Part shown: one piece after another, positions 35,260-64,000 of the stretch
Layout of the letters: each line of letters opens with the position of its first letter
Numbering within the stretch: the stretch's first letter is position 1
Source: a virus
Taxonomy: Duplodnaviria > Caudoviricetes
Length of the DNA: 64,000 nt
Strand: one strand, 5' to 3'
Virus record (IMG/VR): IMGVR_UViG_3300025389_000011
Position numbers and translations under genes: made by a program
Notes under the pieces: model-generated
The model's input: the letters and a program-made list of their open reading frames with translations, nothing else
Told to the model about the DNA's origin: nothing
Databases searched by the model: none

Positions 35260-35814
35260 TTAGAATGAACGTGTGTATGATAAGTTATAGCTATGATTTT
35301 GGCTATCACCACGAACGCGGTCATAACGTAAACCGATACTATCTTTCTTTGTCAATGCATAGCTTAAGCCAGCACGAACGGTATCTGTTGTATCATTGTA
35401 CACATTTGGGTCTACCATAGCAGTACGATAACGGAATCCAACTTTAGCAGTTGCTTTACCTAATGTGTAAGTAACACCAGGCTCAACGCTGTAGTAACCA
35501 AAATTAGCACCATTTGTATACTTTTCACCAACTGCAACACGTGTATAAACACCAGCTGGTCCGAATGATAATGCACCAGTTACACCAGCTTCCAAACGTG
35601 TACTTAATACGTCAGTTGCTTGTTGTTGATAATTGGTAAAACTTACGTCACCTGCAAAAGTATTGTTGATTGATTCTTTTACAGAAACTTGGTAGTTAGT
35701 TGAATTTTTAGCACCTTTGTCACCTAATTGGTCTTGACCTTCTAGGGTAACACTAGCGGCTGATACGAAACCAGCAAAAGCCATTAGGGCTAAAGTTAAA
35801 GCGAGTTTTTTCAT
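35260..35814 (-). CDS. Outer-membrane beta-barrel protein
   Basis: Sec signal peptide (VSA/AS), alternating amphipathic strands, C-terminal YxxxF (LSYTRSF). Confidence 0.8.
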   Translation of the reverse strand: MKKLALTLALMAFAGFVSAASVTLEGQDQLGDKGAKNSTNYQVSVKESINNTFAGDVSFTNYQQQATDVLSTRLEAGVTGALSFGPAGVYTRVAVGEKYTNGANFGYYSVEPGVTYTLGKATAKVGFRYRTAMVDPNVYNDTTDTVRAGLSYALTKKDSIGLRYDRVRGDSQNHSYNLSYTRSF

Positions 35815-37490: not shown

Positions 37491-38078
37491 TTATTTATTC
37501 GCTAGGGGATTGTCTACAGCTTTTTGAATTTTAGCATCAACTTCTTTCTTTAATGCTACCATTTCACGGTCAATGTCTTTACGCATTTGAGCATTTTCTT
37601 GGCGCATTGCTTGAAGTTCTGCACGTTCTTTATCCAAATCTTCACGAACACCTTTACGCAAGTCACGCATTTCGGCGTCACTTTCACGGTTTGCATCCTT
37701 AACATAACGTTCAACTTGTTCAGTAACAGTTTCAGTTCTACGGATATCACCTTTTAAATCATTCTTGATGTCACGTGTATAGTCAGAAGTTTTTTCGCTA
37801 TTTTGTTCAATAACGGCTAGTCGTTTATCAAATTCACTTAAGTCTGGTGCTACATATTTGGCAATTTTATTTTTCATGTCCATATAGTCTTTGTACACCT
37901 CAAAACAACCATATAGTCCGCCCAATATAGAACTTACCAAGGTAAATGCTACCATTAGTTTTGCCGGAGTAAATTCATATCCACCAATACTAATAACAGT
38001 ATCTTTACTTGCGTATTTTTTTACAGCTTCTTCTGCTTGGTCAATTTTTTCATTGACATCTTTAATTTCTTCTGTCAT
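37491..38078 (-). CDS. Single-TM coiled-coil protein
   Basis: TM LMVAFTLVSSILGGLYG followed by a long heptad region. Confidence 0.75.
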   Translation of the reverse strand: MTEEIKDVNEKIDQAEEAVKKYASKDTVISIGGYEFTPAKLMVAFTLVSSILGGLYGCFEVYKDYMDMKNKIAKYVAPDLSEFDKRLAVIEQNSEKTSDYTRDIKNDLKGDIRRTETVTEQVERYVKDANRESDAEMRDLRKGVREDLDKERAELQAMRQENAQMRKDIDREMVALKKEVDAKIQKAVDNPLANK

Positions 38079-47921: not shown

Positions 47922-48760
47922 TTGATATACTCTTTGGTTTTTTCTGCCCAATATTCGTGATGTATAGGTCCAAGATGACTTTTGTCTCTAGCCAAATCTT
48001 TTTCGATATCAGTTTCAGTATATTGTTTGTAAAATCTATCAAATACTCTACCAAATTGTGGTATAATTACTGCACTGGTTAAATCCATGTGTTTCAAAAA
48101 TTCGTATGTGTTACCGTCCCACGCTGAAAGATATATTTTGATATTTCTTTCTTTGGCAATTTTTTCTGCCAAATAAATATCATTCCTAAGGTTCTTGTAC
48201 ATATCTTCCTCAGGTGTACCTTTATACAATGATTCAACATCAACTTTGTATTTTTTTAACATAGGATCAGTAGATTGAGCTGATGACATATACAATATTT
48301 TATGTGTCTCTGCGTTAATTTTAGCTATCTGTAATCGCATATAGGGAGATAACACCAATATTGCATGTTTCATGGTTACATGTTTAGATATAATTAAAAA
48401 TAAATCTATGATACTTTTAGGTGACAATCCATTCATTGCAAAGTTCAAATGCGACATGTTTAATTGTTTAGCCAATAATGTATGCCACAACATGTCTACG
48501 GGTAATCCCAATCCTGCACAATAGCTACAACCAAAAATACCAATATCAGTTGTCGAAGGTATTTCATCGCTATCCATGCGAAATCCAAATTTATTATAGT
48601 TGTAATTAAATTTTGAATATTTCTTTTCCCATTCACTGGAAAATTTCATGTCATCGAGGCTAGCAAATTCAAGTTGAAATGAACTAGTCGCAGTTGTGTA
48701 AGAAGATACATCACTTATATTTTTTGAATCTAATAAATTCAATTTAGCTATACTTTTCAT
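47918..48760 (-). CDS. SGNH-like hydrolase/acyltransferase
   Basis: YNYNKFGFR, FGCSYCAG.G, LNFAMNG.S, RDKSHLGP..H. Confidence 0.7.
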   Translation of the reverse strand: MKSIAKLNLLDSKNISDVSSYTTATSSFQLEFASLDDMKFSSEWEKKYSKFNYNYNKFGFRMDSDEIPSTTDIGIFGCSYCAGLGLPVDMLWHTLLAKQLNMSHLNFAMNGLSPKSIIDLFLIISKHVTMKHAILVLSPYMRLQIAKINAETHKILYMSSAQSTDPMLKKYKVDVESLYKGTPEEDMYKNLRNDIYLAEKIAKERNIKIYLSAWDGNTYEFLKHMDLTSAVIIPQFGRVFDRFYKQYTETDIEKDLARDKSHLGPIHHEYWAEKTKEYIK

Positions 48761-48783
48761 TTATAAATCCAATGTCATTGTTT

Positions 48784-48888
48784 TCATTTATAAATAAAAG
48801 GATCTCTTTTACGTAATTCTTTAATGCGTTTACGATAACGTAATTCCATTTTGATTTTATAGTATATATTTTTAATCCAACTAAACAT
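48784..48888 (-). CDS. 34-aa basic microprotein MFSWIKNIYYKIKMELRYRKRIKELRKRDPFIYK (not in ORF track)
   Basis: Fills the gap exactly; start overlaps the upstream stop region; manual translation. Confidence 0.7.
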   Translation of the reverse strand: MFSWIKNIYYKIKMELRYRKRIKELRKRDPFIYK

Positions 48889-50155
48889 TTGTGTTCTCCT
48901 TGTTTATAGTGTCAATGATTTCTACAATGTCAGGGTAAATCTTTTTCCAATCTAGATTTCTTCTAACATCTAAATCATCTAAGAATCCATGTAAGTCGTT
49001 TACAGCTTTAACACTTACGGGAGTAGCCAACATTTGCTTTTTAATACCGGTTAATGAATTGATTTCCGGGCTATAATCTTTTTTATATTTATTAAGTGCT
49101 TCAATGGCTTTGTCTACATATGGCACCAAGTGCTTTCCAAAGTTATACGGGTTAAAGCAGTCAGGTCTAACCACTGTGTTCCAATTGAGGTTGGCAGTTT
49201 TATTTTTCAATATCCATTGACCACAGAACATGTCAATTAATTTATGCAATGCAGGTAATGTTACAGCAGTTAGTGTAGCATGTATTTGCAACACAACTCC
49301 CCAACTTTCTAACACGGTATTGATATTCTTTTCGCAATTTTCTAAGTTAAGACCATAACGTGCATACTCTAATTCTGGTCCCCAACAATCAATACTTGCA
49401 GTAATTTCAAAACGTTTTAATTTTTTAGCTTCTACTAATTTTTGAATTCTATTGATTTTTTCCTTGAACTTTTCAGGCTCATGATTTAGATTTGAAAAGA
49501 TACGCCAAATTAAATTTGGATTGTCATGTGTTTCAAAAAATTCTAAATGCTGTTCAAATTCTTTTTGATACATGGGCTCTCCACCCAATGTATTGTAAAT
49601 TACTAAATCTTTTGAGTTTTCATGCATCCATTCCCAGAATTGTTTTACATACTCATCATAGTTATCTCTGTCATCTGCTCTAAAGTTACTATAGTCATCA
49701 TTGAATTGGCTTTTACCATACTTACGTACTTCTTGTTCAATAACGCTACTAAAGCCGGGGGTACAATAAACGCATGATTGATTGCACACGTTGCTAAAGT
49801 ATACTTCCAACAGTCTAGGGTTTACGTTGATTTCTTTAGGGTTTGTTTCTAATTCATACGGAAGCAATTCAACTGATTTGTTTGCAAATCCAATTCTATC
49901 GCTTACCCCACCTGCTTGTTCAACATTGCGACAATATTCGCAACCGTTACCTGGCCATATACCTTCTAACATTTTTTCTCTATCACCTAATTTGCCCGGA
50001 TGATTATGAAAATCTTTTAGTGTATCTTTATTTAATTTCCAATGAAATCCACGATGGCAACTAGCAGTAGTTCCTCGATTTAAGAATAATGTGCTCCATG
50101 TCCATTTATATAGACATGCGGCATCGTTTACTATAGGGAATGTTTTTTTGTTCAT
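48881..50155 (-). CDS. Radical SAM protein
   Basis: CNQSCVYC, GGEP, SIDCWG, N-terminal C..KW...SCH. Confidence 0.9.
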   Translation of the reverse strand: MNKKTFPIVNDAACLYKWTWSTLFLNRGTTASCHRGFHWKLNKDTLKDFHNHPGKLGDREKMLEGIWPGNGCEYCRNVEQAGGVSDRIGFANKSVELLPYELETNPKEINVNPRLLEVYFSNVCNQSCVYCTPGFSSVIEQEVRKYGKSQFNDDYSNFRADDRDNYDEYVKQFWEWMHENSKDLVIYNTLGGEPMYQKEFEQHLEFFETHDNPNLIWRIFSNLNHEPEKFKEKINRIQKLVEAKKLKRFEITASIDCWGPELEYARYGLNLENCEKNINTVLESWGVVLQIHATLTAVTLPALHKLIDMFCGQWILKNKTANLNWNTVVRPDCFNPYNFGKHLVPYVDKAIEALNKYKKDYSPEINSLTGIKKQMLATPVSVKAVNDLHGFLDDLDVRRNLDWKKIYPDIVEIIDTINKENTNV

Positions 50156-50922
50156 ACTATATTTAAGGTTCTTTTAACCAATGGGAATAATTCTTGTCTG
50201 AAATACATTAAATGTCCGGCTTCATTAACATGATTGTCGATAAAATGATAATGGTTCCAATTGTGTTCAAAGTCCATACGCCCAGAAAAATCATACCTAG
50301 CTATATGTCTATATTGCAAATGTTTAAGTATTTCTAATTCTTTGAATTTAGTATTCATATCAGAATGTATTGTTTCGGGATTACACCATAAAAATTTTAT
50401 ATTTTTAGATGTTACAAACGAATAAGTTGCCAATGTTGACATTAAACTTTGATAATACATTATTGTGTCATTTGTAAGATATTTGTAAAACTGAACTCTT
50501 GCATTTCTATATTCATTATATGCGATTGGATATAATGGATTATTTATTTTATCCGGGTCATCGCCCCAAGCAGGGCACCACGGCACAATCATTTCAGGAT
50601 CTTTATACCCTGCTAAACTAAAACGATCCATGAATGTTCCATTAAATAACACCAATGCTATATCGTCATGTTGATTGATATAATCAACTGTGTCCTTGAA
50701 AATTCCAAATTGACTATTGCCCGGGCTTGCTAAATTAACTACATTATAATATGGTAACTGTTGATTTAATAATGTTGCCCAGCAGTATTCGCTAGAAGGG
50801 TCATTGGGATATTCAAAGGGTTTACCTAAATGAGTTTTTGTTTTCTCATCAAAATAATATATTCTATCCTTACAACCTTGACCATATGTATAGCTATCCC
50901 CTACTACTAATATTGTACTCAT
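50152..50922 (-). CDS. SGNH/GDSL-like hydrolase
   Basis: GDSYTYG, NLASPGNS, DNHVNEAGH. Confidence 0.8.
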   Translation of the reverse strand: MSTILVVGDSYTYGQGCKDRIYYFDEKTKTHLGKPFEYPNDPSSEYCWATLLNQQLPYYNVVNLASPGNSQFGIFKDTVDYINQHDDIALVLFNGTFMDRFSLAGYKDPEMIVPWCPAWGDDPDKINNPLYPIAYNEYRNARVQFYKYLTNDTIMYYQSLMSTLATYSFVTSKNIKFLWCNPETIHSDMNTKFKELEILKHLQYRHIARYDFSGRMDFEHNWNHYHFIDNHVNEAGHLMYFRQELFPLVKRTLNIV

Positions 50923-51674
50923 TAACTAATTCCTAACTGTTTCATAAAGGGCATTATAACTCTATCAAAATAAATTTTATGTCCTGTGTCATTGCAATGT
51001 CCATCAGGCTGATAACATGTTTTATTAAATTCTTCATTTTCTCTTCCTGAAAAATCATACCTAAATATATGAGGGAAATAGTTAGGTACTAGTTTTGATA
51101 TTTTGTACTTTAGTTTAGAATAATCAACGCCAACCAGAGGCATAGACCAAGCAAATTGTGCGTTACATGCTTTGGCTACCCCATATATTCCCATGATACT
51201 GGTAAATGCATTTTGTAGACCAATACTATCATTATACAAGTATTTTGCATACATCATTTTTGCAGTACTATAATCTTTAGGATCATTGTCTCTGTAAAAA
51301 GAACCATCAAATTTGATAGACCAAGTTACTGGATCTTCTGGATTAAGATAGCTTGCCACTTCAATTCTGTCCATAAAAGCTCCGGCCGCTACAATTAAAT
51401 AGTCTGAATTTATATTGCTACTGGCATGTAGTGTCATTAAATCTCTAAACATTCCTGAATATGAATGTCCCGGTTTACTTGCATTTATTACCAATGCATT
51501 GTTAATATTGTTTTGTAACAAAGAACCCCAGCAATAATTGCTAGGTTTCAAGTGAAAGTCGGATGCCATACTTCCCACCCATACTTTCTTTTCAATATCA
51601 AAGTAATAATTTTTGTCTGAGCACCCATGTCCAAATGTAAAACTATCACCTAGCAGTATAATTCGTTTTATCAT
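50922..51674 (-). CDS. SGNH/GDSL-like hydrolase
   Basis: GDSFTFG, NASKPG.S, DGHCNDTGH. Confidence 0.8.
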   Translation of the reverse strand: MIKRIILLGDSFTFGHGCSDKNYYFDIEKKVWVGSMASDFHLKPSNYCWGSLLQNNINNALVINASKPGHSYSGMFRDLMTLHASSNINSDYLIVAAGAFMDRIEVASYLNPEDPVTWSIKFDGSFYRDNDPKDYSTAKMMYAKYLYNDSIGLQNAFTSIMGIYGVAKACNAQFAWSMPLVGVDYSKLKYKISKLVPNYFPHIFRYDFSGRENEEFNKTCYQPDGHCNDTGHKIYFDRVIMPFMKQLGIS

Positions 51675-51675
51675 T

Positions 51676-52428
51676 TCAATCTTTTTTGTCTAAATCTGTG
51701 GAGTATCTTTCGATAATTTCTTTGTTCTTGCAAGTAAGTTCAGGATTTTTATACAAGTCAATAATTTCAGGATATAGTTCCCAACACTCAGAAATTATTT
51801 TAGCAAAAATCATGTTTCTTTCTTTAGATAAATGACACCAACGATTGTCAACACGATTCATATTGGGCAATTCATTTCTACTTACTGATATTAAATTGTA
51901 TAAACATGGACCATGACGGTTATCTAAGTTGGTACTTAAATGTTTGTCTCTACGGTCTTCAAATGTTAACACATTTACTAATTTAATATTTTTGTTTCTG
52001 CATATATCATTTACATCATTGAAGATTTTTTGTTTTACCCAAACATCAAACTCAGTATCTATATTTATAGCACGACCAGTAAGAATTCTTACCATTTCAA
52101 GTTCTTGTTCAATTGTTAATTCTTTGTTTCTGCGTGTTTCATATAACTCATCGGGAGTGTTTAAGAAATGTAATCCTTCACAACCATGTGGCAAATGATG
52201 TATACGATGCAATGAAGAATGCATGAACACAATGTGGTCAAATTGGTCATGATGTGCTAAAAATTGCTGATATGCATACCACGTGCTGGTACCTGTTTTA
52301 CCATAAGTGGTTATCTTGTTTCCACCTTCTTCAATAAATCTAATCCAAGATTCGTCTTCCTTAAAGGGACTATCAGGATTGTGCGGAGCTCTATCCGCAA
52401 AACTATCTCCAAATACACCTATTCTCAT
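51676..52428 (-). CDS. SGNH-like hydrolase
   Basis: GVFGDSF, GKTGTS, WCHLS..RN. Confidence 0.75.
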   Translation of the reverse strand: MRIGVFGDSFADRAPHNPDSPFKEDESWIRFIEEGGNKITTYGKTGTSTWYAYQQFLAHHDQFDHIVFMHSSLHRIHHLPHGCEGLHFLNTPDELYETRRNKELTIEQELEMVRILTGRAINIDTEFDVWVKQKIFNDVNDICRNKNIKLVNVLTFEDRRDKHLSTNLDNRHGPCLYNLISVSRNELPNMNRVDNRWCHLSKERNMIFAKIISECWELYPEIIDLYKNPELTCKNKEIIERYSTDLDKKD

Positions 52429-52431
52429 ATA

Positions 52432-53628
52432 TCATCCTTTTTTGATTACTTTATTTACATATAACTTGTCCATGGCAGATTTTTTACCACATGTTTCTAA
52501 ACAGAATAACAATTTACCACCTTCAATAGTTGGTCTACTCCATCCATCTAAAAAGAATTTTTGAAAGTAAGGACCGTTTAATACTTCTACCATATTATAT
52601 ACTTTCAAATCAAATTTATCAAGCCCATATTCTCTAATCAATGTGTTAAACTGAAAACGTGAATATGAACTATGAAATTGACCAAATACTCCACCCAAGA
52701 AACAACAAGGTAACATATACCCATTGGCTGATATGTATACTTCACCATGTTCAGGGTGTTCAATTGATTTACACGCTATGCCATCATTTTCTAAACTTTT
52801 ACCAAACTCGCTAATAATAGGTATATGTCTATCTTGTGCAGTACTTAATACACCTTTACTAAAATCAACTTTGTAACCTAAAGGCGGAGTATAAACTTCT
52901 TCTTTAGAAAAACTAGCATTTGCAGGCCAAATACTGTACTCGAAATATCCTTCTTTGTCATAAACATTAATAGGAGTTGGTTTGTCATCGTATTCACCAA
53001 AACCTAAAGGATTTTTCATTGAGAATATAAATCCCAACTCTTTTGCCAACTTTTGTGCTTCTTCTACTTGATGTTTATTGTGGTCAAATAACAGCCATTC
53101 CCATATTGCTTTGGCCCCGGTAGCACTATATGCTCTCATGTTAGCAATAACTTTTTCCCACTTGACCCCTCTGCGATAAATGTGATTTGTGTCTTCTAGT
53201 CCATCAACACTAAACACAACACCCGGTTGGTTAAACAAGTGATTGTCCCAAAATTTGGGAGTACGGTTTTGTTGTTCCGCAAAAAACTCACCCATGCTAG
53301 TCCAAAACTCAGTATTACGCATACCACCATTGGTTCTTACTTGTTGTATAACTTTACTTGAATGCTCTGAAAAATATTTCATGATTGGTAACAAGTCAGG
53401 AGCCATTCCAGGATCTCCAACATTACCGCAATAATTAATTCCAATTAAGTTTTGTGCTATCTCTACCGGAACCATTCTTTTAATATCTTCAAGCGATAGT
53501 TCTGTAAGTTCTAAGTCTGGTACTACTGCACCACCAGAAAAATTTCTACTACATGCCGGGCAACTGGCATTGCATCTACTTGATAACTCAATGTGCAGTC
53601 TTGCCACTTTATGATACATCTTATCCAT
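52432..53628 (-). CDS. Radical SAM protein with C-terminal SPASM/twitch-like Cys
   Basis: CNASCPAC, CGNVGDP, SVDGL, PCC...CLETC. Confidence 0.9.
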   Translation of the reverse strand: MDKMYHKVARLHIELSSRCNASCPACSRNFSGGAVVPDLELTELSLEDIKRMVPVEIAQNLIGINYCGNVGDPGMAPDLLPIMKYFSEHSSKVIQQVRTNGGMRNTEFWTSMGEFFAEQQNRTPKFWDNHLFNQPGVVFSVDGLEDTNHIYRRGVKWEKVIANMRAYSATGAKAIWEWLLFDHNKHQVEEAQKLAKELGFIFSMKNPLGFGEYDDKPTPINVYDKEGYFEYSIWPANASFSKEEVYTPPLGYKVDFSKGVLSTAQDRHIPIISEFGKSLENDGIACKSIEHPEHGEVYISANGYMLPCCFLGGVFGQFHSSYSRFQFNTLIREYGLDKFDLKVYNMVEVLNGPYFQKFFLDGWSRPTIEGGKLLFCLETCGKKSAMDKLYVNKVIKKG

Positions 53629-54881
53629 TATTTTTTTCCTATATATTTTGCTAAATTGTCCGGTTTATTTCTACGCTTAGTGTACTGTTCAAAAAAGATA
53701 TCACTATCAACACGCAATTGTTGTTGATTTTCTTTCACTAAACCACTATCTAACATAGTTAATAATCTGTTGCAATGTTCTTGTTCAACAGGTAACAAAT
53801 CATTACTAATACTATCGTAAAATTTTGTATACTTGTCAATATAAAAATCACGTTCTTGTCGTGTTAGGCAACCAAAACCTTGAAAGTCTGGCTTGTCAAC
53901 CATGTTAATTGATATATAAGGTTTTACTTTGGTACGCTTACGTATGTCAATAATATCCAAATACATTTGATCCAAACTCTGTAACGCAATTGCGCTTACT
54001 GTGGTGCTGATTGTAAATTCTTTAACTGTACTGTTACCTAGTCTTTCTACATTTTCTAACCATTCACTATATACCATACCCTCACGAATAAACTCCGCAG
54101 TTTCTCCTGCGCTTTCATTACTGATATTCATGCGTAAGTTTGTAAGTTTACTAATCTTGTCAAAAAATCTGTCCATAACAACGGGCTTTTGACATAAGTT
54201 ACTGTGTATCACGCATTCAATGTGTGGGTTCATTTGTGTCATCATTTCAAACACACGAAACACTTCTTCATGCATTAAGGGTTCGCCACCACTAACACGT
54301 ATGCTTTCTAGTCCATCTGCAACGGTAGTGAACCAATCCCAAAACAAATTCATATCGGGAGGGTCAATCATTTGTTGTATCTCAGCAATATCTTTTTGAT
54401 AATGTCTGCGGTCGTCAGTTGTAATGTCCTGATAGACTCCTTGATTTCTAATATCATTCATCCATGCTGTACTGAACTGCGGACTGCAATAGCTACATGC
54501 TAAGTTACATGTATTCTGAAATGCTAATTCTAATGCTTTGGGCTTGAATACGTAGTTAGGATTTTTATAATCATCTGCACTTAGATGGTCTTTGAAACTT
54601 AAACTTTTACGTGTTCTGTCACTACGCAAGCCTAAGTTTTCATAATGCCAACAGCTATTACATGCAGGAGGTTGTTCACCTGCTAACATACGCTTTTGTT
54701 GTTCACGTTTTTCAGCAGGATTATAAAATGTATCTACTGTGTTGCCCACTTGAATAAAGGGAGTATAATGACAACTTGCTATTTTACCCGAGTATACCCA
54801 AATACTTGCTTCATGGAACTTAGCCAAACACATTGTTGGACTGGTTTCATCACGTATCTTGAAAAGTTTTTTCTCATCCAT
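53628..54881 (-). CDS. Radical SAM protein
   Basis: CNLACSYC, SGGEP, N-terminal CLAKF...SCH. Confidence 0.9.
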   Translation of the reverse strand: MDEKKLFKIRDETSPTMCLAKFHEASIWVYSGKIASCHYTPFIQVGNTVDTFYNPAEKREQQKRMLAGEQPPACNSCWHYENLGLRSDRTRKSLSFKDHLSADDYKNPNYVFKPKALELAFQNTCNLACSYCSPQFSTAWMNDIRNQGVYQDITTDDRRHYQKDIAEIQQMIDPPDMNLFWDWFTTVADGLESIRVSGGEPLMHEEVFRVFEMMTQMNPHIECVIHSNLCQKPVVMDRFFDKISKLTNLRMNISNESAGETAEFIREGMVYSEWLENVERLGNSTVKEFTISTTVSAIALQSLDQMYLDIIDIRKRTKVKPYISINMVDKPDFQGFGCLTRQERDFYIDKYTKFYDSISNDLLPVEQEHCNRLLTMLDSGLVKENQQQLRVDSDIFFEQYTKRRNKPDNLAKYIGKK

Positions 54882-56224
54882 TATAATACCTTGATTTTAT
54901 TGTACTGTTCTTTTTGCAATGTTACGTTTAAGTTGTTGTGTATAATATAATTTTTCATATTGATATGTTCTGGATAAACATCAAAAAAACTTTGACTGCG
55001 AATATCATCTAGTTTTGTTGTGATATGCCAAAAGTCTCTAAGACTTTCATCAATACCCGCATGGTATTTTGATGTATCCGACCACATAAATTTAATTGCA
55101 GTATCATACATACTTACCACATGTTCGCAGTTACCAAAAGTTTTTAGCCACTCAATGTTTTCATTTAGTTTGATTTCAATTTCACGCTTTTTCCAATCAG
55201 GAATATTCTTCAAACAATAATAGGGAGGAGTATCTAATGGATTAACCATGATTTTATCAGGTTGAATATATCCCAATTCAGTCCATTCTCTATGAAACTC
55301 TACCAAGTTAAATGCATTAGGCCAACTTAATGTATATGCTATACTAAAGTTAACGTGCGGAGTTTGTTCCATCATGCGTTTACGATTTTCTACAACTTGT
55401 TTCCAATCTGTGCCATTACGCCAGTATTCGGCTTTTTCATGACTGCCATCTAAACTTGCATATACATTTACGTCTTTGAACTTTTTCCAATACTCTAACA
55501 CATTATCAAAATTCTTTAACTTGAAATTAGTAAAGTTTGTGTTGTATCTGATAGTAATATCTGTGTTGCCAAACTCAATCAATTTATCTAAAATTTGATA
55601 GTGTTCTTTTTGCATCAATGGCTCACCACCTGCAAAGTAAATGCACTTAGCTGTTGCTAAGTGTGGTAATGTTTCTAAAAATGCTTGTTCTTCAGTTTTA
55701 CCTGGATATTGAAATCCATCGTCTTTGTCTCTGCGCTCAACCAAATTGTATAGTTTTCTATGGTCTAATATCCATCCAGTGCTATAGTGAGGGGCACAAC
55801 TACGGCAACTTAAATTACATAGGTTATTAAATCGTACATCAATGTAATACAATTTATGTTCATCTAATGAACCATCAGGGTTAGTACTTGCTACAATATC
55901 TTGTATGTCTTTGCTTTTTTCAAAAAACAATTTGTTGTATTCATTCTTGTGTGCGTAATCAATTTCCGCACGTTGGTTACATATGTGACAATTGGGTTCT
56001 TCAATGCCGTTTAAGAAATCTAAACGCATTTTTTTCATTTTGTCATTGTTCCATATTTCTTCTAATGTGTTTTCTTTAAGACTACCCACTTGTTCATTGT
56101 GGCTATACACACAGCAAGGTTTAACATCACCTGGTGGACCTACATATTGATGAATCCATGGAAAGATACAAAATGTTTTACTTGTTTTAGCTAATGCTAA
56201 TGGATCAAACGTTTGATTGGACAT
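54881..56224 (-). CDS. Twitch/SPASM-domain radical SAM protein
   Basis: CIFPW...PCC...CHIC, CNLSCRSC, AGGEP, SLDG. Confidence 0.92.
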   Translation of the reverse strand: MSNQTFDPLALAKTSKTFCIFPWIHQYVGPPGDVKPCCVYSHNEQVGSLKENTLEEIWNNDKMKKMRLDFLNGIEEPNCHICNQRAEIDYAHKNEYNKLFFEKSKDIQDIVASTNPDGSLDEHKLYYIDVRFNNLCNLSCRSCAPHYSTGWILDHRKLYNLVERRDKDDGFQYPGKTEEQAFLETLPHLATAKCIYFAGGEPLMQKEHYQILDKLIEFGNTDITIRYNTNFTNFKLKNFDNVLEYWKKFKDVNVYASLDGSHEKAEYWRNGTDWKQVVENRKRMMEQTPHVNFSIAYTLSWPNAFNLVEFHREWTELGYIQPDKIMVNPLDTPPYYCLKNIPDWKKREIEIKLNENIEWLKTFGNCEHVVSMYDTAIKFMWSDTSKYHAGIDESLRDFWHITTKLDDIRSQSFFDVYPEHINMKNYIIHNNLNVTLQKEQYNKIKVL

Positions 56225-57521
56225 AATTTGTTATTTTTTCATACATATAGGGAAATACATCGCTGAACTTTTCATTTCTAACATTATCTAATAGTTCAGT
56301 TTCGTGTAAGAATTTTTTCAACATTTCTTTATCACTTGGTTGACTATTCATTAATATGATAGCATTTTCCCAATGACTTATTGATTGGTCATATGTAAAA
56401 TTCTTTTCTTGTGTTTCTTCTAACCATTTTAAATGATTTTTAATTTTTTCTGTTACTTCTTGTTTAACATCAGGAGGCAATATATTGGTTCTGAAATGTT
56501 GTGGGTAATGTAATGTGTTCAAATAAAACCCAAACTTATCAAACAATTTATTCTCACACATGTATCTATGCAAATCAACTGCTTGGTAACAATTTAATAA
56601 ACTATATACTGCGGTGATGCCATAATCTTTATTAGGCAAATATTCTTTAGCGGTCTTGATCCATTCAAGTGCAACGTTCCAATCAAAACCTTTACGTATA
56701 TATTCACCTTCTGCGCCCATTGCATCAACACTACCCACAATAAACACATTGTCAAACTTCTGTAGTAACTCAAATGCATTATCGTCTTTAAGTGTATATG
56801 TTGTAAGATTGGTATTGTAACGTATCTTAACATCAGTTTTGTTTTTAGCAATCAATAATTTTAAGAAATCATAGTGGTCTTGTTGCAACATAACCTCACC
56901 ACCGCTAAAGTGTACTTCAGTATATGTATCAATGATATTAACCAGTTCTTCTAAATCTGTGTGTACATTTTCTGAATCATTGCTTAACAATCTTGAGTTT
57001 GTGGTAAAATGATGACGACCTAATTTAATTTCATCAGGAATCCAAGCTGTGCTACAACGTGTACCACAACTACGGCATTTCAAATTACACAAGTTATTAA
57101 AGATTAAATCAACTGTTGAGATTTTTAAATCATTATCAACTGTGCCATCTGTGTCACTATGCTTTAATATGTCTTCTAATTTGTTGGCATTGGTTTGACT
57201 TAATGCATCAGGGAATCGTGAATAGCGTTCATTAAATCTTTCACGCATACTAACAATACCACTATCCTCTTCGCTCCAACATTTAGTGCAAGGTTCAGGC
57301 TTTTTACCATCTAAAAAGTCCTTACGTAACTGATTCCATTTGTCATTGTGAAATGTATCAATCAATGTACTGTTGTTCCAATTGCCTAATACATTGTCTT
57401 TGGTATGTGCAGGATTATAATAACAGCATGGTGTTATCTCTCCGTCTGGTTCTGTATGTATTTGTAGCCAAGGTAGACTGCAAAATGTTTTTGGTAATTG
57501 TTCTACTGTTAAATTAATCAT
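56205..57521 (-). CDS. Twitch/SPASM-domain radical SAM protein
   Basis: CSLPW...PCC...CTKC, CNLKCRSC, SGGE. Confidence 0.92.
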   Translation of the reverse strand: MINLTVEQLPKTFCSLPWLQIHTEPDGEITPCCYYNPAHTKDNVLGNWNNSTLIDTFHNDKWNQLRKDFLDGKKPEPCTKCWSEEDSGIVSMRERFNERYSRFPDALSQTNANKLEDILKHSDTDGTVDNDLKISTVDLIFNNLCNLKCRSCGTRCSTAWIPDEIKLGRHHFTTNSRLLSNDSENVHTDLEELVNIIDTYTEVHFSGGEVMLQQDHYDFLKLLIAKNKTDVKIRYNTNLTTYTLKDDNAFELLQKFDNVFIVGSVDAMGAEGEYIRKGFDWNVALEWIKTAKEYLPNKDYGITAVYSLLNCYQAVDLHRYMCENKLFDKFGFYLNTLHYPQHFRTNILPPDVKQEVTEKIKNHLKWLEETQEKNFTYDQSISHWENAIILMNSQPSDKEMLKKFLHETELLDNVRNEKFSDVFPYMYEKITNYVQSNV

Positions 57522-58671
57522 GTTTTATAAATTCAATTATTTGGTTAAACGCATTTTGGTATGTTGTATTTCTTAAGATATCTATATTATTTAAAGTATC
57601 TATTGCTATATCAAATTTTCGTGTATCAAAATCTTTTGGCACAGAATAATCCATATGTTGTTTAAATATTTCTATACCACGTAGTATAGTTTTGTTGGTT
57701 ATGTTGGGATTTATACCATTAATAACATATTCACATATTTGTCGTTTGTTGTCAGAAGATAATATGTCAACAGAATAATAATTAGGACCAATTAATTTAG
57801 TTACCAATAAATCTGATAATTTTGGATAATCCGTACTTATCCAATTAATAAATTCTTTGAAATTACTAGAGTTCATCCATGACAATGTATAATTAAAACC
57901 AAAAGTCATGTTTGATGCATTGGTATAATATTGATAAAAATAATCAATTGTTTCTTTAGTTGATTGATAATTTGCACCAGACCTAATATATTCAAATACA
58001 TTATCTGTACCGTCTATACTTAATTGAATACCCACCATGCTGAATTTGTTTAGGTATTTTTGTATGTTTTCACATTTGGTTGTTCCATTGGTTGTGATAA
58101 CTATCACAGTATTCTTTGCATAAGGCTGTTCTGCTAACCAATCAATAAACTCTAGTACCATTGGGTTAATCAATGGTTCACCGCCTAACACTTCAAATCT
58201 AAATTCTTCAAAATCACGTTCTGCCAGTAATTGTTTAATAAAGTCAATTTTTTCAGGTGCCGGACTCTTTATTACTTTATTAAACCATTTTATATCTTTA
58301 CCTTCTATTTGTAGTTTTTCTGCGGCAATACGTGTGCTATTTTCAGGTATACATGTAATGCATTTTAAATTGCATAAGTTATCAAACGATGCAGTAACAA
58401 CCAATACTTTATCCGAACGTATGCTATCCTTAAAGGATGTTCTTAGACTCCATGGACCTGATTTCTCCATGTCAATACATCCTTTACAATTGGTTTCAAT
58501 ATCACACTCAGCTAATTGAGAATAAAAATCATTAGGTGTTTTAGCTTCAATGCTAGATTTGAACCAACAGCAAGGTTTATATACTTTTGCTGATTCAATC
58601 TGACTAGCATTGGCAATAAAAATCCATTGCTTATGTGCAGAGCATTCTTTATAAGGTGTTAAATCAATCAT
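57514..58671 (-). CDS. Radical SAM protein
   Basis: PCC...CKGC, CNLKCITC, GGEP, SIDG. Confidence 0.9.
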   Translation of the reverse strand: MIDLTPYKECSAHKQWIFIANASQIESAKVYKPCCWFKSSIEAKTPNDFYSQLAECDIETNCKGCIDMEKSGPWSLRTSFKDSIRSDKVLVVTASFDNLCNLKCITCIPENSTRIAAEKLQIEGKDIKWFNKVIKSPAPEKIDFIKQLLAERDFEEFRFEVLGGEPLINPMVLEFIDWLAEQPYAKNTVIVITTNGTTKCENIQKYLNKFSMVGIQLSIDGTDNVFEYIRSGANYQSTKETIDYFYQYYTNASNMTFGFNYTLSWMNSSNFKEFINWISTDYPKLSDLLVTKLIGPNYYSVDILSSDNKRQICEYVINGINPNITNKTILRGIEIFKQHMDYSVPKDFDTRKFDIAIDTLNNIDILRNTTYQNAFNQIIEFIKHD

Positions 58672-58672
58672 T

Positions 58673-59806
58673 TTACTTATAGCCTATAAATTGTAAAAAA
58701 TCTTGTACCAATGGTTGATGTGTATTACCACGTCTACCATCAAAGACATTTAACGAATTTATTCCACTTCTTAATAACTCTTTGTCATATGAATCATAGG
58801 TTGTGGATAGCATATGCTCTTTGTAAAGAAACAAGCAACGTTCATAATTTTCATTAACTGGGGTGTCCAATTCGGTCATAACTTTATTGAACACACGTGT
58901 TTTCATATCTACGGATAACAAATCAATTGAAAAATGTTCTGGTACATCTAGTTTACTAACATAGATATTCCATTTTGGATATCTGCGTTGTGCCCAATTG
59001 TAGTATTGTGCGAAATGCAAACAATTCATCCAGCTTAATGTATAGTGACTTCCTATAAAAAAGTTACTGTGTGTTTCAGTTAATTTATAAAATTCATCAC
59101 ATACTTTTTCTAATGTGGTAAAATCATTTCCATATCGCAAATATTCATACTCTTGATTAATACCATCAATACTTAACTGAATGATAACGTTAGAAAACTT
59201 ATCCAAATACTTAAGTATTTTGTCGCTGTATGTGGTACCATTTGTAGTAATACTAATCATGGTATTTTTTGCATAAGATTGTTCGCTTAACCAATCTAAA
59301 AATTCAAAGATAGCAGGATTAATCAATGGTTCACCGCCCAATATGTCTACACGTATTGTTTTGAATGTATTGTTGGCTAGAGTTGTTTTAACAAAATCTA
59401 CTTTCTTAGGAGCTTGTTGTTGCAAACGTGTGTAATACTTTTTATCTTTACCCATTACTCCGTCAGGCCAATCAACAAAAAATTCTTTAATCAATGTTGT
59501 TGAATTTGAAGGAGTGCAGGTAATGCAACCCAAGTTACAAATATTGTCAAATGAAACTGTTAATATCAATTCGTCTGGTTTATCAAATTGTTGTCTATAA
59601 CTATATTGCCCACCTTGATCCTGCTTGATACAATAATCGCAATTATACTCTAAGTCCATTTCACTTAGTTGTTTTCTATAATCATCTGCATCAACTGCAT
59701 CAATATAAGTTTTGAACCAACAGCAAGGTCTGTAGGGTTTTTCTTCATTAGCAATAAAAATACTATTTGTTAGTGCTAGACAATTTTTGTAAGGTGTTAA
59801 ATCCAT
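58673..59806 (-). CDS. Radical SAM protein (paralog of the next gene)
   Basis: PCC...CDYC, CNLGCITC, GGEP, SIDG. Confidence 0.9.
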   Translation of the reverse strand: MDLTPYKNCLALTNSIFIANEEKPYRPCCWFKTYIDAVDADDYRKQLSEMDLEYNCDYCIKQDQGGQYSYRQQFDKPDELILTVSFDNICNLGCITCTPSNSTTLIKEFFVDWPDGVMGKDKKYYTRLQQQAPKKVDFVKTTLANNTFKTIRVDILGGEPLINPAIFEFLDWLSEQSYAKNTMISITTNGTTYSDKILKYLDKFSNVIIQLSIDGINQEYEYLRYGNDFTTLEKVCDEFYKLTETHSNFFIGSHYTLSWMNCLHFAQYYNWAQRRYPKWNIYVSKLDVPEHFSIDLLSVDMKTRVFNKVMTELDTPVNENYERCLFLYKEHMLSTTYDSYDKELLRSGINSLNVFDGRRGNTHQPLVQDFLQFIGYK

Positions 59807-61080
59807 CCTGATAACTCCGGGAAATTCATGTTAAAGTTTTTATTTCTGCGTTTGTCATACTCATTAACAAACTTACTAAACTGGTCTGTACGCCAATCTC
59901 TGTCTTCTGTTGTCATTGTGTCGTGTCGTGCTTTCCAAAAGTCATAAACCATTTGCCACGTTTCTTCTTCTACATTAGTTACATTATTGTTTTTAATAAA
60001 ATCATTTGTATCATCAAAGTACTTATCGCAATAATCAGGGAGAATTCTTAAATCAAACTGTTTAGGGTCAACAAGTCTTGCACAATTAAACATAATGTCT
60101 ATGCCATCATTGCGTAGTTCAATAACTTTCTGTATAAATGTTTTAAAGTTAAAAATACTCATTAACCCAAACGTTACCATAATACGAATAGGTACATTAA
60201 ATGTTGTACTTACTTTGCGTACAGTATTTTCCCAACGTTCAATATCTAACCCATCACGAATGTACTCAGCTTGTGGGCCCCATGTATCCATGCTTGTATA
60301 TACTTCTAAGCCTTTGATTGTTTTAGCATTTAATAATGTTGTTGCTTTTTCAAAGAACATGTTTAAGTTCTTATCAGGTACACACAAGTTTGTGTTTACA
60401 ACCAATGTTAAGTTGGGGTTATGATTTGTTGCAACAAAGTCTAACAACTTCATAAAGTTGCGAGTTGCAAGTGGTTCACCCCCTGTAATGCGTAGATATT
60501 TTAAGTCTTTGTAAGCATCTGGTAACCACTGCCAAAATGCATCAATATATGGATTGTCATCTTCTAATAACATGTCATGCATTTTGTCTTTGTGTACTGT
60601 AGGGTCTTCAATGGGGTAACTACCATACTTGCGTACTTCTGTTTCCCACTTACTACTTTGTCCAGGACTGCAATAACTGCAACCAAAGTTACACACGTTA
60701 CTAAAACTTAGTTCCAAATAACTGGGATTGATATGTTTATCATAAGGTGCATTGATAATTTCTTCTCTGCGTTCAATAGCATATTGTTCGTTGGTAAAAC
60801 GTTTTCTATCACTAATCACATCTGGATTAATCTTTTCCATGTCAAAACAGTAATAGCATTCGTTAGGTTTTTCACCATTCATCATTTGTCTACGTTGCTC
60901 AATTTTATGTGCGGTGTTGTGCAACATGCTTGGGTCACGTTTTACATCTTCTAAGTTCCAACGATGTATTGGTGGGTGGTAGCAACTGTGATTTTCTCCC
61001 ATACCAAAGTGCATGGTAGCCATTAACCATTTGGCTGAACAAAAACTATCTTTAATCTTATCTGGAATAATTGGTATCAT
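59797..61080 (-). CDS. Radical SAM protein
   Basis: CSAKW...SCYH...CYYC, CNFGCSYC, TGGEP. Confidence 0.9.
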   Translation of the reverse strand: MIPIIPDKIKDSFCSAKWLMATMHFGMGENHSCYHPPIHRWNLEDVKRDPSMLHNTAHKIEQRRQMMNGEKPNECYYCFDMEKINPDVISDRKRFTNEQYAIERREEIINAPYDKHINPSYLELSFSNVCNFGCSYCSPGQSSKWETEVRKYGSYPIEDPTVHKDKMHDMLLEDDNPYIDAFWQWLPDAYKDLKYLRITGGEPLATRNFMKLLDFVATNHNPNLTLVVNTNLCVPDKNLNMFFEKATTLLNAKTIKGLEVYTSMDTWGPQAEYIRDGLDIERWENTVRKVSTTFNVPIRIMVTFGLMSIFNFKTFIQKVIELRNDGIDIMFNCARLVDPKQFDLRILPDYCDKYFDDTNDFIKNNNVTNVEEETWQMVYDFWKARHDTMTTEDRDWRTDQFSKFVNEYDKRRNKNFNMNFPELSGWI

Positions 61081-62255
61081 AAAAATTTCTCTAATTCTGG
61101 TATGTAATCATTATATCTTATATTACGTGCATTGTCAACTGCTACAATAAAGTCTTTGGCTTTAGTTAGTAGTTCAGGTTGAAACTCTATGTTAAGTTTA
61201 GCAAACAAATCATTGCGTTGATATTCGGGTAACTTGTCAGCATAGTATTCTTTCAACTCAGTTTTGATATGGTTGGGCAATACTGCTAGACTTAAGTAGT
61301 CTGGGTATAACACATAATTGTGATGTGGGTGTTTGTTGTATTCACTACTTAACCAATCGCTAAACTTGTCTAAGTTATAGATATTGAAAATGCTAACAGT
61401 CTGCGTAACATGCCAGTCTACATTCTTTAGTTTGTTTAGTTTTTTAATACTGTTAAGTGTCTGTTCCCATTTGGTTGGGTAACGAATATAATAGTTGCGT
61501 TCATTCAAGTCATCAATACTTGCGTTGACTGTAACCTTTTTAAAACTTTTCCATAATGCAATTAAGTTGCTGGGAATATCCATCATGTTCAAGCTGTAAA
61601 CCAAATGTACATTTTGTGCAACATCTAACAATATCAATTTCTTTAAGTATTCAAAGTGTGCTTTAATCAATGTAGGTTCACCACCATTGATGTAAATTTC
61701 TTCTACGTCTTTACTGTGTTCTGCTAAGTCTTGATAGAACTCGGGTTTTTCAAACCATTTGAAATTTTCAAGCGGGCGCAATTCGAACCAAGGCAACACT
61801 TTAGCAATTTTCTTTTCATCAGGATACCATTTGCTACTGCTATAACTGTTGCAAGTTAAACAAGCATTGTTACATACATTACCCAATCGTAACTCTACAT
61901 AACGCAAGTCTACGTTTTGTAACTTAGCAGATTTTTCTAGTAAAGGTATAATGTGCGCCCAACGTTCGTTTTCATATTGACGTTTGCTTTTAATGCCCTT
62001 GTCTTCGTCACTCCAACAGCCTTCACACTCAACAGGACGTTGTCCATCTATCATAGCTTGGCGAACTTCAATAAACTTTTTACTGTTCATAATGTCACTA
62101 ACACTATCATTGTCAAGCATAACTAGACTTTGTGTGTCATCTTTCTTTGCCCAACTGATTGCATTTGTATGATTGCTACGGCAACATAGGCTAGCTCCTC
62201 CGTTAGGGTGCGTAGCCAAATGCATCCAGGGTAGTACGCATAATGTATCACTCAT
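61077..62255 (-). CDS. Twitch/SPASM-domain radical SAM protein
   Basis: CVLPW...LCC...CEGC, CNNACLTC, NGGEP. Confidence 0.92.
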   Translation of the reverse strand: MSDTLCVLPWMHLATHPNGGASLCCRSNHTNAISWAKKDDTQSLVMLDNDSVSDIMNSKKFIEVRQAMIDGQRPVECEGCWSDEDKGIKSKRQYENERWAHIIPLLEKSAKLQNVDLRYVELRLGNVCNNACLTCNSYSSSKWYPDEKKIAKVLPWFELRPLENFKWFEKPEFYQDLAEHSKDVEEIYINGGEPTLIKAHFEYLKKLILLDVAQNVHLVYSLNMMDIPSNLIALWKSFKKVTVNASIDDLNERNYYIRYPTKWEQTLNSIKKLNKLKNVDWHVTQTVSIFNIYNLDKFSDWLSSEYNKHPHHNYVLYPDYLSLAVLPNHIKTELKEYYADKLPEYQRNDLFAKLNIEFQPELLTKAKDFIVAVDNARNIRYNDYIPELEKFL

Positions 62256-63657
62256 TGTAAATATTATCCCACCATTTTAATAATTCAGGGTTACGACTGT
62301 AAATGTCACGTAGGGTTAACGGATTCTCACGAATTTGCTCTAGTCTTTCTACCCAACCTTTACCGTTTTTAGCACCCTGTTTGTATGTTTCTGGCCACTC
62401 TTCGGCATGTGTTTTACGTGTTTCTTTTAATGCCTTTAAGTTACCAATCAAGGTGTCTTGTTTCCACGTAGCACGTGGTGTAATGTACTCTAAGATATCA
62501 TCTACCATGTCGTTGAGTATAGGACGTGGCCAACTTAATGGTGTCCACATGATATCATTGTGAAAGCCAAACGTTGTTTTAGTTTCAATCTTAACATCTA
62601 ATTCAATACTCAAGTCAAACAAGTCTTTAATTGAAAACATGCCTGGAGCAGTTAGTGTTAAATCAAGAACCATTTTGTCTTTACCATTTGGTAATGCTAG
62701 TCCTTGCTTGAAGTTTTCTAACCACTTGTCCCATTTAATGCCTGTGCGAATGTATTCAACAATTTCACCAGTGCCATCAATACTTGCACACATCATCCAG
62801 TCTTTGTACAATGGAAGATAATCATATAAGTTTTTCTTTCCAAATTGTACACGACTTAAGTTACTGTTATAACGCATGTAACATTTCTCATTACTCCCGT
62901 TATTCAGCATTTCTTCTAATGTCCACCAATGTATATCATACATCAATGGCTCACCACCAACCCAATACATTTCTTCAACAATACCCCTGCGTACCGCATC
63001 CTTAAATTCTGCTTCCACAACATTAACTTGAAAGTCTTGCATGGCACTTTTGATTTCCGGAATCATAAAAGGTTGATTCTTTGGTGTCCACATATCATGT
63101 GTTTTCTTTTCAGTTTCCCATGCGCTACTTAATTGTTCTCCGCACATACGACATTTGAAATTGCATAGATTGCTAAAGCGATAATCGAAACTAATTGGTT
63201 CCATCGTGGTGTAACCATTATCGTCTGTGCTATCAAATGCTTGTTGTATTTTGTCACGGAACAATGCACCGGTAAACCAACCGCGGTAGCTATAACCTTC
63301 CATCAATAGATTTTTGTTGCATACATCACATTGTGGAATCTCTTCGCCACGCATTAACTTAACACGTATGTCACGCATGTATGGACTGTTCCAATGTTCT
63401 TTTAGACTAATAGGCTTATATGCATCAAGTGAAGTACCGCTTTCTTTTACATTGCCATACTTGCTATCATTACTACTGTCAATATATTGTTTTTGAAAGC
63501 TATGTTCTTCACGACTGGCACAACATAATCTGCGTTCGCTTTGTGGGCTTATGTAAGTGTGTGTCCATGGCGCCATGCAAAACACTTTGTTTTTGCTTTC
63601 AGGAGCAGGCTTTGCATTATCTCCCCATATAGGGATTATTCTGTTATTAGTATCCAT
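62248..63657 (-). CDS. Twitch/SPASM-domain radical SAM protein
   Basis: CMAPW...LCC...CDVC, CNFKCRMC, VGGEP, SIDG. Confidence 0.92.
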   Translation of the reverse strand: MDTNNRIIPIWGDNAKPAPESKNKVFCMAPWTHTYISPQSERRLCCASREEHSFQKQYIDSSNDSKYGNVKESGTSLDAYKPISLKEHWNSPYMRDIRVKLMRGEEIPQCDVCNKNLLMEGYSYRGWFTGALFRDKIQQAFDSTDDNGYTTMEPISFDYRFSNLCNFKCRMCGEQLSSAWETEKKTHDMWTPKNQPFMIPEIKSAMQDFQVNVVEAEFKDAVRRGIVEEMYWVGGEPLMYDIHWWTLEEMLNNGSNEKCYMRYNSNLSRVQFGKKNLYDYLPLYKDWMMCASIDGTGEIVEYIRTGIKWDKWLENFKQGLALPNGKDKMVLDLTLTAPGMFSIKDLFDLSIELDVKIETKTTFGFHNDIMWTPLSWPRPILNDMVDDILEYITPRATWKQDTLIGNLKALKETRKTHAEEWPETYKQGAKNGKGWVERLEQIRENPLTLRDIYSRNPELLKWWDNIYNE

Positions 63658-64000
63658 ATTCTATCGCCATTTCTTTGTATTCGGGAAACGCATTAATAAA
63701 TGATTCTTCCCTACGTAAATCAACTTCTTTTAATCTTGCTATTGCCGCTGTCATCAAATTTGATTTATCTTTACTGTTCATAAATAAAACCATTCCCTTC
63801 AATGTATCCATATTAACTTTATTTTTATCAATACTATTAAAATATTTTTCAACACGTGTTTTGATATTTTTAGGTAATACTTGCAAATTAAACAAATCTG
63901 AGTATACTGTATTAAAATTAATTTGTGGTTTATTATCAAAAGAAGCTAGTGCATCAATTATCTTTTCTACATGAAAAACATTTGGCCAAGATATAGTTAC
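63647..64000 (-). CDS. C-terminal part of a further radical SAM paralog (runs off window end)
   Basis: Open frame VTISWPNVFHVEK...LQVLPKNIK...DLRREESFINAFPE, resembling the C-termini of neighbours (TLSWPNAFNL...DDIRSQSFFDVYPE). Confidence 0.7.
   Translation of the reverse strand, partial: VTISWPNVFHVEKIIDALASFDNKPQINFNTVYSDLFNLQVLPKNIKTRVEKYFNSIDKNKVNMDTLKGMVLFMNSKDKSNLMTAAIARLKEVDLRREESFINAFPEYKEMAIEYGY

Follow-up and report, generated by a model that had tools for sequence, protein, structure and literature searches.

The 64,000-nucleotide (nt) stretch of viral DNA analysed here (IMG/VR record IMGVR_UViG_3300025389_000011, Duplodnaviria, Caudoviricetes; "the window" below is this entire stretch) carries an array of radical S-adenosylmethionine (SAM) genes that extends past its end and reaches a total of 13. 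Twelve of them belong to a catalogued yet functionally uncharacterised family, NCBIfam NF033640 (N_Twi_rSAM, "twitch domain-containing radical SAM protein"), whose members in other viral loci form a cassette of five orthogroups in a fixed order. Judging from phylogeny and gene order, the array appears to be this cassette in a partly duplicated and enlarged form, and it is among the largest instances of a widespread, unexplained system. With moderate confidence, we propose that the enzymes of the cassette modify a sugar or glycan step by step through radical chemistry.

Ten radical SAM genes lie complete in the window and an eleventh is represented by its 3′ end, all on the minus strand (Table 1), and each of the 10 complete open reading frames (ORFs) contains exactly one CxxxCxxC motif. 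A first-pass annotation of the sequence had described a phage array of at least 11 such paralogs that continued off the window, and contig L003, which matches the last 354 bases of the window exactly, bears out this count and brings it to 13; the array does continue, but it ends just two genes past the partial one, where genes of other kinds begin. Twelve of the 13 genes are contiguous, and the remaining one, at 48881–50155, is detached behind three small hydrolase-like genes. The nine complete contiguous genes run from 52432 to 63657, their junctions being overlaps of 1, 1, 20, 8, 10, 4 and 8 nt and one 1-nt gap, and the outermost of them (62248–63657) overlaps the partial gene (63647–64000) by 11 nt. 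Tight packing, with overlaps of 1–34 nt or gaps of 1–8 nt, prevails from position 64000 down to 41119, the sole exception being a 120-nt spacer (48761–48880) that is mostly filled by a 34-codon ORF. The annotation had also found no precursor peptide gene inside the array, which is correct for the contiguous row, where no additional ORF lies, but not for the whole range it cited, which takes in this conserved small ORF (48784–48888). Scans for T4-type late promoters (TATAAATA), sigma-70 promoters and terminators gave nothing above chance.

All ten complete genes match the Pfam Radical_SAM model (expectation value (E) 1e-3 to 2e-10), of which seven exceed the Pfam cut-off, and nine match NF033640 with E values of 1e-48 to 4e-109; on these profile matches, the radical SAM identity of the array is far beyond chance. 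For NF033640, which has a curated whole-protein cut-off of 170 bits, full-length matches were found in 12 of the 13 genes, ten of which score 232–365 bits and are clearly over the cut-off, and the other two, 57514 and 58673 (single genes are named by their start positions), form a divergent pair with 44% identity to each other. The annotation had considered that all the paralogs might map to one characterised family with one known reaction. Twelve of the 13 do fall into one family, but this family has no characterised reaction. It is a large one, with 7,588 clusters (at 50% identity) reaching E ≤1e-30 when 1.8 billion representatives were searched with a profile.

The NF033640 proteins encoded here consist of an N-terminal four-cysteine twitch domain, a core with the CxxxCxxC motif and a helical C-terminal part. 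The domain for the auxiliary cluster thus precedes the core in 12 genes, unlike the canonical order of BtrN, anSME and MoaA, and the four-cysteine motif (C-x17-23-C...C-x2-C) is present in nine of the ten complete genes. The first-pass annotation had presented an N-terminal auxiliary motif with a PW...PCC signature as a departure from known enzymes. Its position is real, but it is already the defining trait of the catalogued family, and the literal PW...PCC form occurs only in 54881 and 56205, with a PW or CC doublet alone in four others. In four copies, the N-terminal domain matches Pfam SPASM (residues 6–114 overall, and 14–82 in 56205–57521). The gene outside the family, 52432–53628, has the conventional order: its CxxxCxxC motif lies at residue 19 and its extra cysteines at 286, 308/309, 376 and 380, a C-terminal set that includes a twitch-like hairpin motif. 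Among 614 members of NF033640, the four twitch cysteines (95–99%), CxxxCxxC and the SAM-binding motif GGEP are each kept in at least 95%. Nearly all members also share four arginines, a hint that the substrate has an anionic handle such as a phosphate, carboxylate or sulfate. A scan for orthogroup-specific active-site residues gave just two sites and was uninformative.

The 13 copies are only 13–44% identical to each other, and each has its own orthologue in related contigs (L088–L093) at 57–89% identity, with the exception of 57514, for which the best match reaches merely 37–44%. Between orthologues, nonsynonymous divergence (dN) is 0.07–0.35 and synonymous divergence (dS) is saturated, giving ratios of around 0.2 or less that are rough because of this saturation. 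Judged by these comparisons, the copies are old, non-degenerate and under purifying selection. As the annotation had supposed in assigning a separate site or substrate to each paralog, they do not appear redundant, and the degeneracy that it had named as an argument to the contrary was not seen.

A tree of the 614 family members contains five large orthogroups, each represented around once per viral locus, while the single-copy bacterial genes form separate clades. Two deep superclades and at least ten orthogroups were resolved, which agrees with the annotation in that there are distinct subtypes; the simple alternation it had described along the array is not found. By orthogroup, the order in the array is 2, 1, 7, 3, 0, 2′, 13, 31, 11, 9, 1′, the conventional radical SAM gene, the hydrolases and 6, and the same order is found in the close relatives L088, L091 and L092. 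In this lineage, orthogroups 1 and 2 are duplicated, orthogroup 4 is absent, superclade I is represented by 56205 and 54881, and further copies have been added.

The cassette itself is widespread. A scan of IMG/VR found at least 555 viral stretches with relatives, and we fetched 79 of these loci. All 79 contain at least three family members within ±10 kilobases (kb), typically five or six and at most 11, in contrast with bacterial genomes, where 55 of 80 loci have a single copy. All five core orthogroups are present in 59 of the 79 viral loci; the exact order 2-1-4-0-3 is found in 32, and most of the others have the same order with insertions. Moreover, about a fifth of the best representatives (29 of 150; P0121–P0202) are fusions of two or three N-terminal-twitch (N-twitch) units, with lengths of 790–1466 amino acids (aa), and fusions joining neighbours of the canonical order were seen for 4-0 (four times), 2-1 (once) and 0-3 (once). 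Since neighbours in a fixed order are found fused, adjacent enzymes would be expected to work together. Taken as genomic patterns, the fixed order, the one-per-genome copies and the fusions fit a multi-step or multi-site tailoring pathway.

Cultured relatives are few and distant. Five paralogues with this architecture occur in Vibrio phages K566/K567 and two in Ralstonia phage RsoM2USA, where gp202 is 34% identical to 59797–61080; a megablast search of the array region against cultured phages gave no match. In the literature that we searched, there is no paper on NF033640, on the phage cassette or on the 34-aa peptide discussed below, and the organisation of the cassette (five orthogroups, fixed order, fusions and expansion to 13) appears not to have been described there. 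The closest report concerns a marine T4-like genome of an uncultured large phage, in which "12 radical SAM genes" were counted in a discussion of Fe-S metabolism (2017, PMC5332604). That paper gives no family, order or function for them.

What could such a cassette modify? The genes around it, which we clustered across 80 loci, form a conserved module. It comprises, in order, a tail-fibre-like gene (with a Peptidase_G2 chaperone domain), cluster 6, cluster 7, two genes of cluster 3, cluster 8, cluster 1, the radical SAM genes, cluster 4 and a carbamoyltransferase gene, with cluster 5 genes interleaved among the radical SAM genes. The module genes are co-directional and translationally coupled and start behind the tail-fibre-like gene; in the present genome, the head of the module (the tail-fibre-like gene and clusters 6, 7, 3, 3, 8 and 1) lies just past the window end. 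The cluster 3 profile resembles glycogenin/GT8 over its DxD half (E 0.004). For a model of cluster 1 (predicted local distance difference test score (pLDDT) of 85), the top Foldseek matches are mostly GT-A-type and chiefly GT2 glycosyltransferases, all weak (E 4e-3), and the protein retains a DGD motif, while cluster 5 is at best GT10-like (ESM Atlas lead of 0.79). The NodU/CmcH-type carbamoyltransferase is found in 58 of the 80 loci. SGNH/GDSL-type hydrolases, whose family profile matches the GDSL proteins 4rsh (E 3e-4) and 4rw0 (E 1e-3), are found in 40 loci, and a gene resembling adenosine 5′-phosphosulfate kinase in 16. A 224-aa gene upstream of the array had no Pfam or NCBIfam match, and its reading as a sulfotransferase was not confirmed. 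The cassette thus sits in a carbohydrate-type gene cluster, with several of its assignments being weak. We favour a glycan substrate because the conserved neighbours include GT8-like, GT-A-like, SGNH and carbamoyltransferase genes and because one protein of the family (P0247) also contains a GT2 glycosyltransferase domain. Of the three classes of target that the first-pass annotation had listed, glycans fit the neighbours best, a virion protein is possible and DNA bases are unsupported.

From this setting, we infer the class of substrate, the reactions and the location of the product. At its CxxxCxxC cluster, each enzyme would split SAM and so generate a 5′-deoxyadenosyl radical, which would abstract a hydrogen atom from an unactivated C–H bond of a sugar, either in a nucleotide- or lipid-linked precursor or in a residue of the completed glycan. 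In the twitch domain, the auxiliary [4Fe-4S] cluster with its four cysteine ligands would then pass the electron on, as in BtrN-type dehydrogenases, and the expected outcome would be oxidation, epimerisation, dehydration, decarboxylation or C–C bond formation. Each orthogroup would correspond to one step or one site. The product would be a heavily tailored glycan that is also acylated or deacylated and carbamoylated, located on the virion (for instance, on its tail fibres) or on the envelope of the infected cell. In its most specific form, this would be a phage line for radical glycan editing, in which at least five N-twitch enzymes in a fixed order each rewrite a different unactivated C–H position of a sugar chain assembled by the neighbouring transferases on the virion or the cell surface, a version that we put forward only tentatively.

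Several observations weigh against a sugar or glycan as substrate. For NF033640, no reaction has been tested in any member. Clusters 1, 3 and 5 are all weakly assigned as glycosyltransferases, and neither Pfam nor PHROGs returned anything for them; among the module genes scanned, none for glycan export or for a lipid carrier was identified. The neighbourhoods of the single-copy bacterial homologues have no shared partner and no conserved sugar genes. In addition, fusions to TPR or Sel1 repeats, which are protein-binding, occur in some proteins of the family.

Structure comparisons place BlsE, a sugar-nucleoside enzyme, first, though in a tie with others. The AlphaFold (AF2) model of 54881–56224 (pLDDT 89.9) resembles solved structures only through the common radical SAM core, with core matches at Z scores of 10–13. 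The top match, BlsE (Z 13.0), aligns over 223 residues with a root-mean-square deviation of 4.8, a Foldseek E of 2e-5 and 14% identity, covering the core and C-terminal parts only, and it is followed by CteB (12.5), SkfB (12.3), MoaA (11.7), anSME (11.6), DesII (10.6) and AprD4 (8.3). As CteB, SkfB, anSME and SuiB are at most 1.5 Z units below BlsE, the structural neighbours do not discriminate between substrates. A search of reviewed UniProt (Swiss-Prot) found the whole fold in no protein, with template modelling (TM) scores of at most 0.37, and a search of the PDB found no solved structure that shares the architecture. The whole fold is shared by unnamed clusters of the AlphaFold DB and the ESM Atlas (TM 0.7–0.88), those of the Atlas being 93–100% viral.

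The best-surviving alternative, though in our view an unlikely one, is that the substrate is a protein or peptide, such as a virion protein (a tail fibre or the 1770-aa repeat protein of this lineage) or a short peptide made on ribosomes. In that case, the transferases would decorate the product, as in RiPPs (ribosomally synthesised peptides that are modified after translation) or the glycosylated cofactor mycofactocin. Most characterised SPASM/twitch radical SAM enzymes act on peptides or proteins, the peptide and protein maturases CteB, SkfB, anSME and SuiB score near the top of the structure comparison (Z 11.6–12.5), and the TPR and Sel1 fusions would suit a protein substrate. The best Foldseek matches of the GT-A-like protein of cluster 1 are the peptide S-glycosyltransferases SunS and ThuS, both weak. 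There is also a candidate large substrate in this lineage, as the 1770-aa protein adjoining the module consists of 16 tandem repeats of around 66 aa (FDFSWxPDP..PPYIYVWGN...GATExKY) and is rich in aromatic residues. This protein is, however, confined to the close relatives L088, L091 and L092, and we rejected it as a universal substrate for that reason. Clusters 7 (104 aa) and 8 (116 aa) were also rejected as precursors, as they resemble ordinary folded proteins. Moreover, neither tails rich in Cys, Ser or His-x-Ser nor small Cys-rich ORFs were seen on the coding strand of the window or upstream of it; the search for tails, which also covered Gly-rich ones, gave hits in antisense frames only. 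Scans of the module genes with Pfam, NCBIfam and PHROGs found no RiPP recognition element, leader peptidase or exporter, with several of the proteins having no recognisable family.

The 34-codon ORF bears on a peptide substrate in both directions. An ORF of 33–34 codons is kept in the module of 62 of the 79 radical SAM loci and is present, unannotated, in RsoM2USA. The family is 33–40 aa long and ends in ...KKRLxELRKRDPFIYK (for example, at L168:14183–14293 and in loci L170–L289), and its invariant residues are encoded by many synonymous codons, which indicates that selection acts on the peptide. A search from the side of the peptide, using a degenerate 24-mer for the C-terminus, found at least 120 viral stretches in IMG/VR, compared with around one expected by chance according to our estimate. 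In these 120 loci, a carbamoyltransferase gene is present in 103 and is the very next gene in 78, usually with ATGA coupling to the small ORF, while N-twitch radical SAM genes are present in only 31; where at least 4 kb upstream of the peptide was covered, radical SAM genes are missing from 43 of 66 loci, and in loci of this kind the peptide is often beside a Toprim-domain protein. We therefore rejected the peptide as a precursor for the radical SAM enzymes, as it tracks the carbamoyltransferase and not these enzymes. From its distribution, it would belong with the carbamoyltransferase, either as a small subunit or substrate of this enzyme or as a leader, which could be regulatory or act as an arrest peptide. 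In two peptide-bearing loci (for example, at L278:3497–4636), the gene after the small ORF encodes a SAM synthetase.

It is still less probable that the enzymes act on free small molecules, producing unusual nucleotide-sugars or modified nucleotides or rewiring cofactors or lipids, with the link to the transferases being one of precursor supply only. The twitch enzymes BtrN, BlsE and MoaA act on small molecules, the near-invariant arginines would fit a phosphate-bearing substrate, and there are secondary NCBIfam matches to MoaA, viperin-like and QueE models as well as fold matches of the modelled copy to GDGT-MAS, MoaA and viperin. Nevertheless, the secondary NCBIfam matches are weak, far under their cut-offs and limited to the common core, and 5 to 13 enzymes in a fixed order, sometimes fused, exceed the needs of known precursor routes. 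Finally, tailoring of hypermodified DNA, for example, of glycans on bases, is very improbable: published papers report phages that glycosylate DNA, and the window has nucleotide-metabolism genes, but its homologue of thymidylate synthase scores above the curated equivalog cut-offs of genuine ThyA, a scan of window and module proteins turned up neither a hydroxymethylase nor a base-modifying enzyme, and the module starts behind a tail-fibre-like gene and not among replication genes.

Tailoring of a sugar or glycan can also be set against characterised systems. BtrN, the 2-deoxy-scyllo-inosamine dehydrogenase of butirosin biosynthesis, is the founding twitch-domain radical SAM enzyme and has a carbohydrate-like substrate. 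The auxiliary cysteines of our proteins have the spacing of its twitch domain (C-x17/18-C...C-x2-C), with four cysteine ligands in each case. However, the twitch domain of BtrN follows the core, while here it precedes it; only this region is matched, and weakly, by our N-terminal domain (BtrN residues 158–256, E 0.04); and BtrN acts alone, while here there are sets of 5 to 13 enzymes. BlsE, the cytosylglucuronate decarboxylase of blasticidin S biosynthesis, is a radical SAM enzyme of sugar-nucleoside chemistry and the top structural match, but it is tied with peptide maturases, and no function can be assigned from this match. These maturases (CteB, SkfB, anSME and SuiB) belong to the same branch of the superfamily and use an auxiliary cluster for redox chemistry after hydrogen abstraction, but their cluster domain is C-terminal, often accompanied by an N-terminal peptide-recognition domain and an adjacent specific precursor, none of which were found here. 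RiPP-type maturase systems in general have a specific precursor peptide, whereas the sole conserved small ORF here accompanies the carbamoyltransferase. Among catalogued proteins, the members of NF033640 are the closest likeness, with the same end-to-end match and N-terminal twitch domain for 12 of the 13 genes.

We know of no radical SAM enzymes in the glycosylation systems of chlorovirus PBCV-1 or of mycobacteriophages. In both the PBCV-1 capsid and mycobacteriophage systems, sets of viral glycosyltransferases are associated with structural genes, as the putative transferases are here. Mycobacteriophage virion glycosylation was reported by Freeman et al. (2023), as cited in PMC12619734, and PBCV-1 A64R is among the weak fold matches of our GT-A-like protein.

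If the tentative version with a phage line for radical glycan editing is true, no earlier case of a virus tailoring carbohydrates through several radical SAM enzymes would precede it, and a family of thousands of proteins would gain its first function. A glycan substrate would in itself extend radical SAM chemistry to multi-step carbohydrate tailoring in viruses and would be relevant to the way in which large phages coat their particles or hosts. Five ancient orthogroups in a fixed order, with fusions and nearby transferases, located behind a tail-fibre gene, constitute a defined target for enzymology, and RsoM2USA and Vibrio phage K566 are cultured phages carrying relatives. There is a physiological question as well, which is why a phage of oxic freshwater would invest in around 25 oxygen-sensitive iron–sulfur (Fe-S) clusters per enzyme set. 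Beside this, a weak ferritin-like protein is encoded at 37491–38078 (minus strand; E 5e-4), which could bear on the iron supply for these clusters.

Table 1. Features of the array and the adjoining part of the module, listed from past the window end towards lower positions (scores in bits are for NF033640; rSAM, radical SAM).
Feature	Position	Strand	Size	Remarks
Two rSAM genes past the window end			510 and 521 aa	289.3 and 288.1 bits; on L003 beyond the partial gene
N-twitch rSAM, 3′ part	63647..64000	-	377 aa when complete	complete on L003:4426-5559; orthogroup 7; 259.8 bits
N-twitch rSAM	62248..63657	-	469 aa	core orthogroup 3, from the tree; 295 bits
N-twitch rSAM	61077..62255	-	392 aa	core orthogroup 0; 345 bits
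N-twitch rSAM	59797..61080	-	427 aa	core orthogroup 2 (second copy); 283 bits
N-twitch rSAM	58673..59806	-	377 aa	166.2 bits, slightly under the cut-off of 170
N-twitch rSAM	57514..58671	-	385 aa	170.0 bits, equal to the cut-off
N-twitch rSAM	56205..57521	-	438 aa	orthogroup 11, superclade I (as core orthogroup 4); 338 bits
N-twitch rSAM	54881..56224	-	447 aa	orthogroup 9; modelled copy; 365 bits
N-twitch rSAM	53628..54881	-	417 aa	core orthogroup 1 (second copy); 242 bits
Conventional-order rSAM	52432..53628	-	398 aa	not a member of NF033640; 38 bits
Protein with N-terminal GDS motif	51676..52428	-	250 aa	cluster 14
SGNH/GDSL-type hydrolase paralogue	50922..51674	-		by family profile
SGNH/GDSL-type hydrolase paralogue	50152..50922	-		by family profile
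N-twitch rSAM, detached from the main row	48881..50155	-	424 aa	orthogroup 6; 232 bits
Conserved small ORF ending ...RKRDPFIYK	48784..48888	-	34 codons	follows the detached rSAM gene, in the 120-nt spacer
Cluster 13 protein	47918..48760	-	280 aa	15 loci; no Pfam or NCBIfam match
NodU/CmcH-type carbamoyltransferase	46440..47951	-		Pfam Carbam_trans_N E 1e-30, Carbam_trans_C E 3e-48
Repeat protein	41119..46431	-	1770 aa	placed with GT-A-like proteins by clustering

Some genes of the module in other loci are also worth recording. Cluster 4, which is absent from the lineage of the window, is a family of 359-aa proteins with around 46 invariant residues and a mean identity of 52% (for example, L122:15638–16717 and L129:13690–14757), and it sits between the radical SAM genes and the peptide and carbamoyltransferase genes in 56 of the 80 loci. 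It had no Pfam, PHROG, PDB or ESM Atlas match. Clusters 6, 7 and 8 likewise had no match in Pfam or PHROGs, and profile searches of the PDB gave nothing for clusters 1, 4 and 5.

Contigs with the array have also been filed under metagenome-assembled genomes of bacteria, namely, Haliscomenobacter (L006/L086 and L008), Legionellales (L005), Rickettsiales (L026) and Elusimicrobia (several contigs of bin-0981). L006/L086, the pair for which synteny was checked, has the gene order of the phage module, including the genes on the tail-fibre side, and the 34-aa peptide ORF is present in L005, L006, L008 and L026 and was not found in the bin-0981 contigs. Such multi-copy "bacterial" loci are probably phage contigs placed in bins, and the binned contigs may give a hint at hosts.

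The window itself belongs to the genome of a large freshwater phage that has not been cultured. Its genes include those for a large terminase, a UvsX-like recombinase, a gp32-like single-stranded DNA-binding protein and a helicase, the terminase sharing 50% identity with that of PA5oct-like jumbo phages, and contigs with genes of the window, from environmental metagenome assemblies (JGI, ENA and Logan), reach 224 kb. Outside the module, there are minus-strand genes for a sugar-nucleotide epimerase/dehydratase of the SDR family (23702–24712) and a GT4 glycosyltransferase (32223–33227), which indicate that the phage has further sugar chemistry. The same strand also encodes a RimK-type ATP-grasp ligase (33300–34184) and a porin-like fragment (35260–35814).

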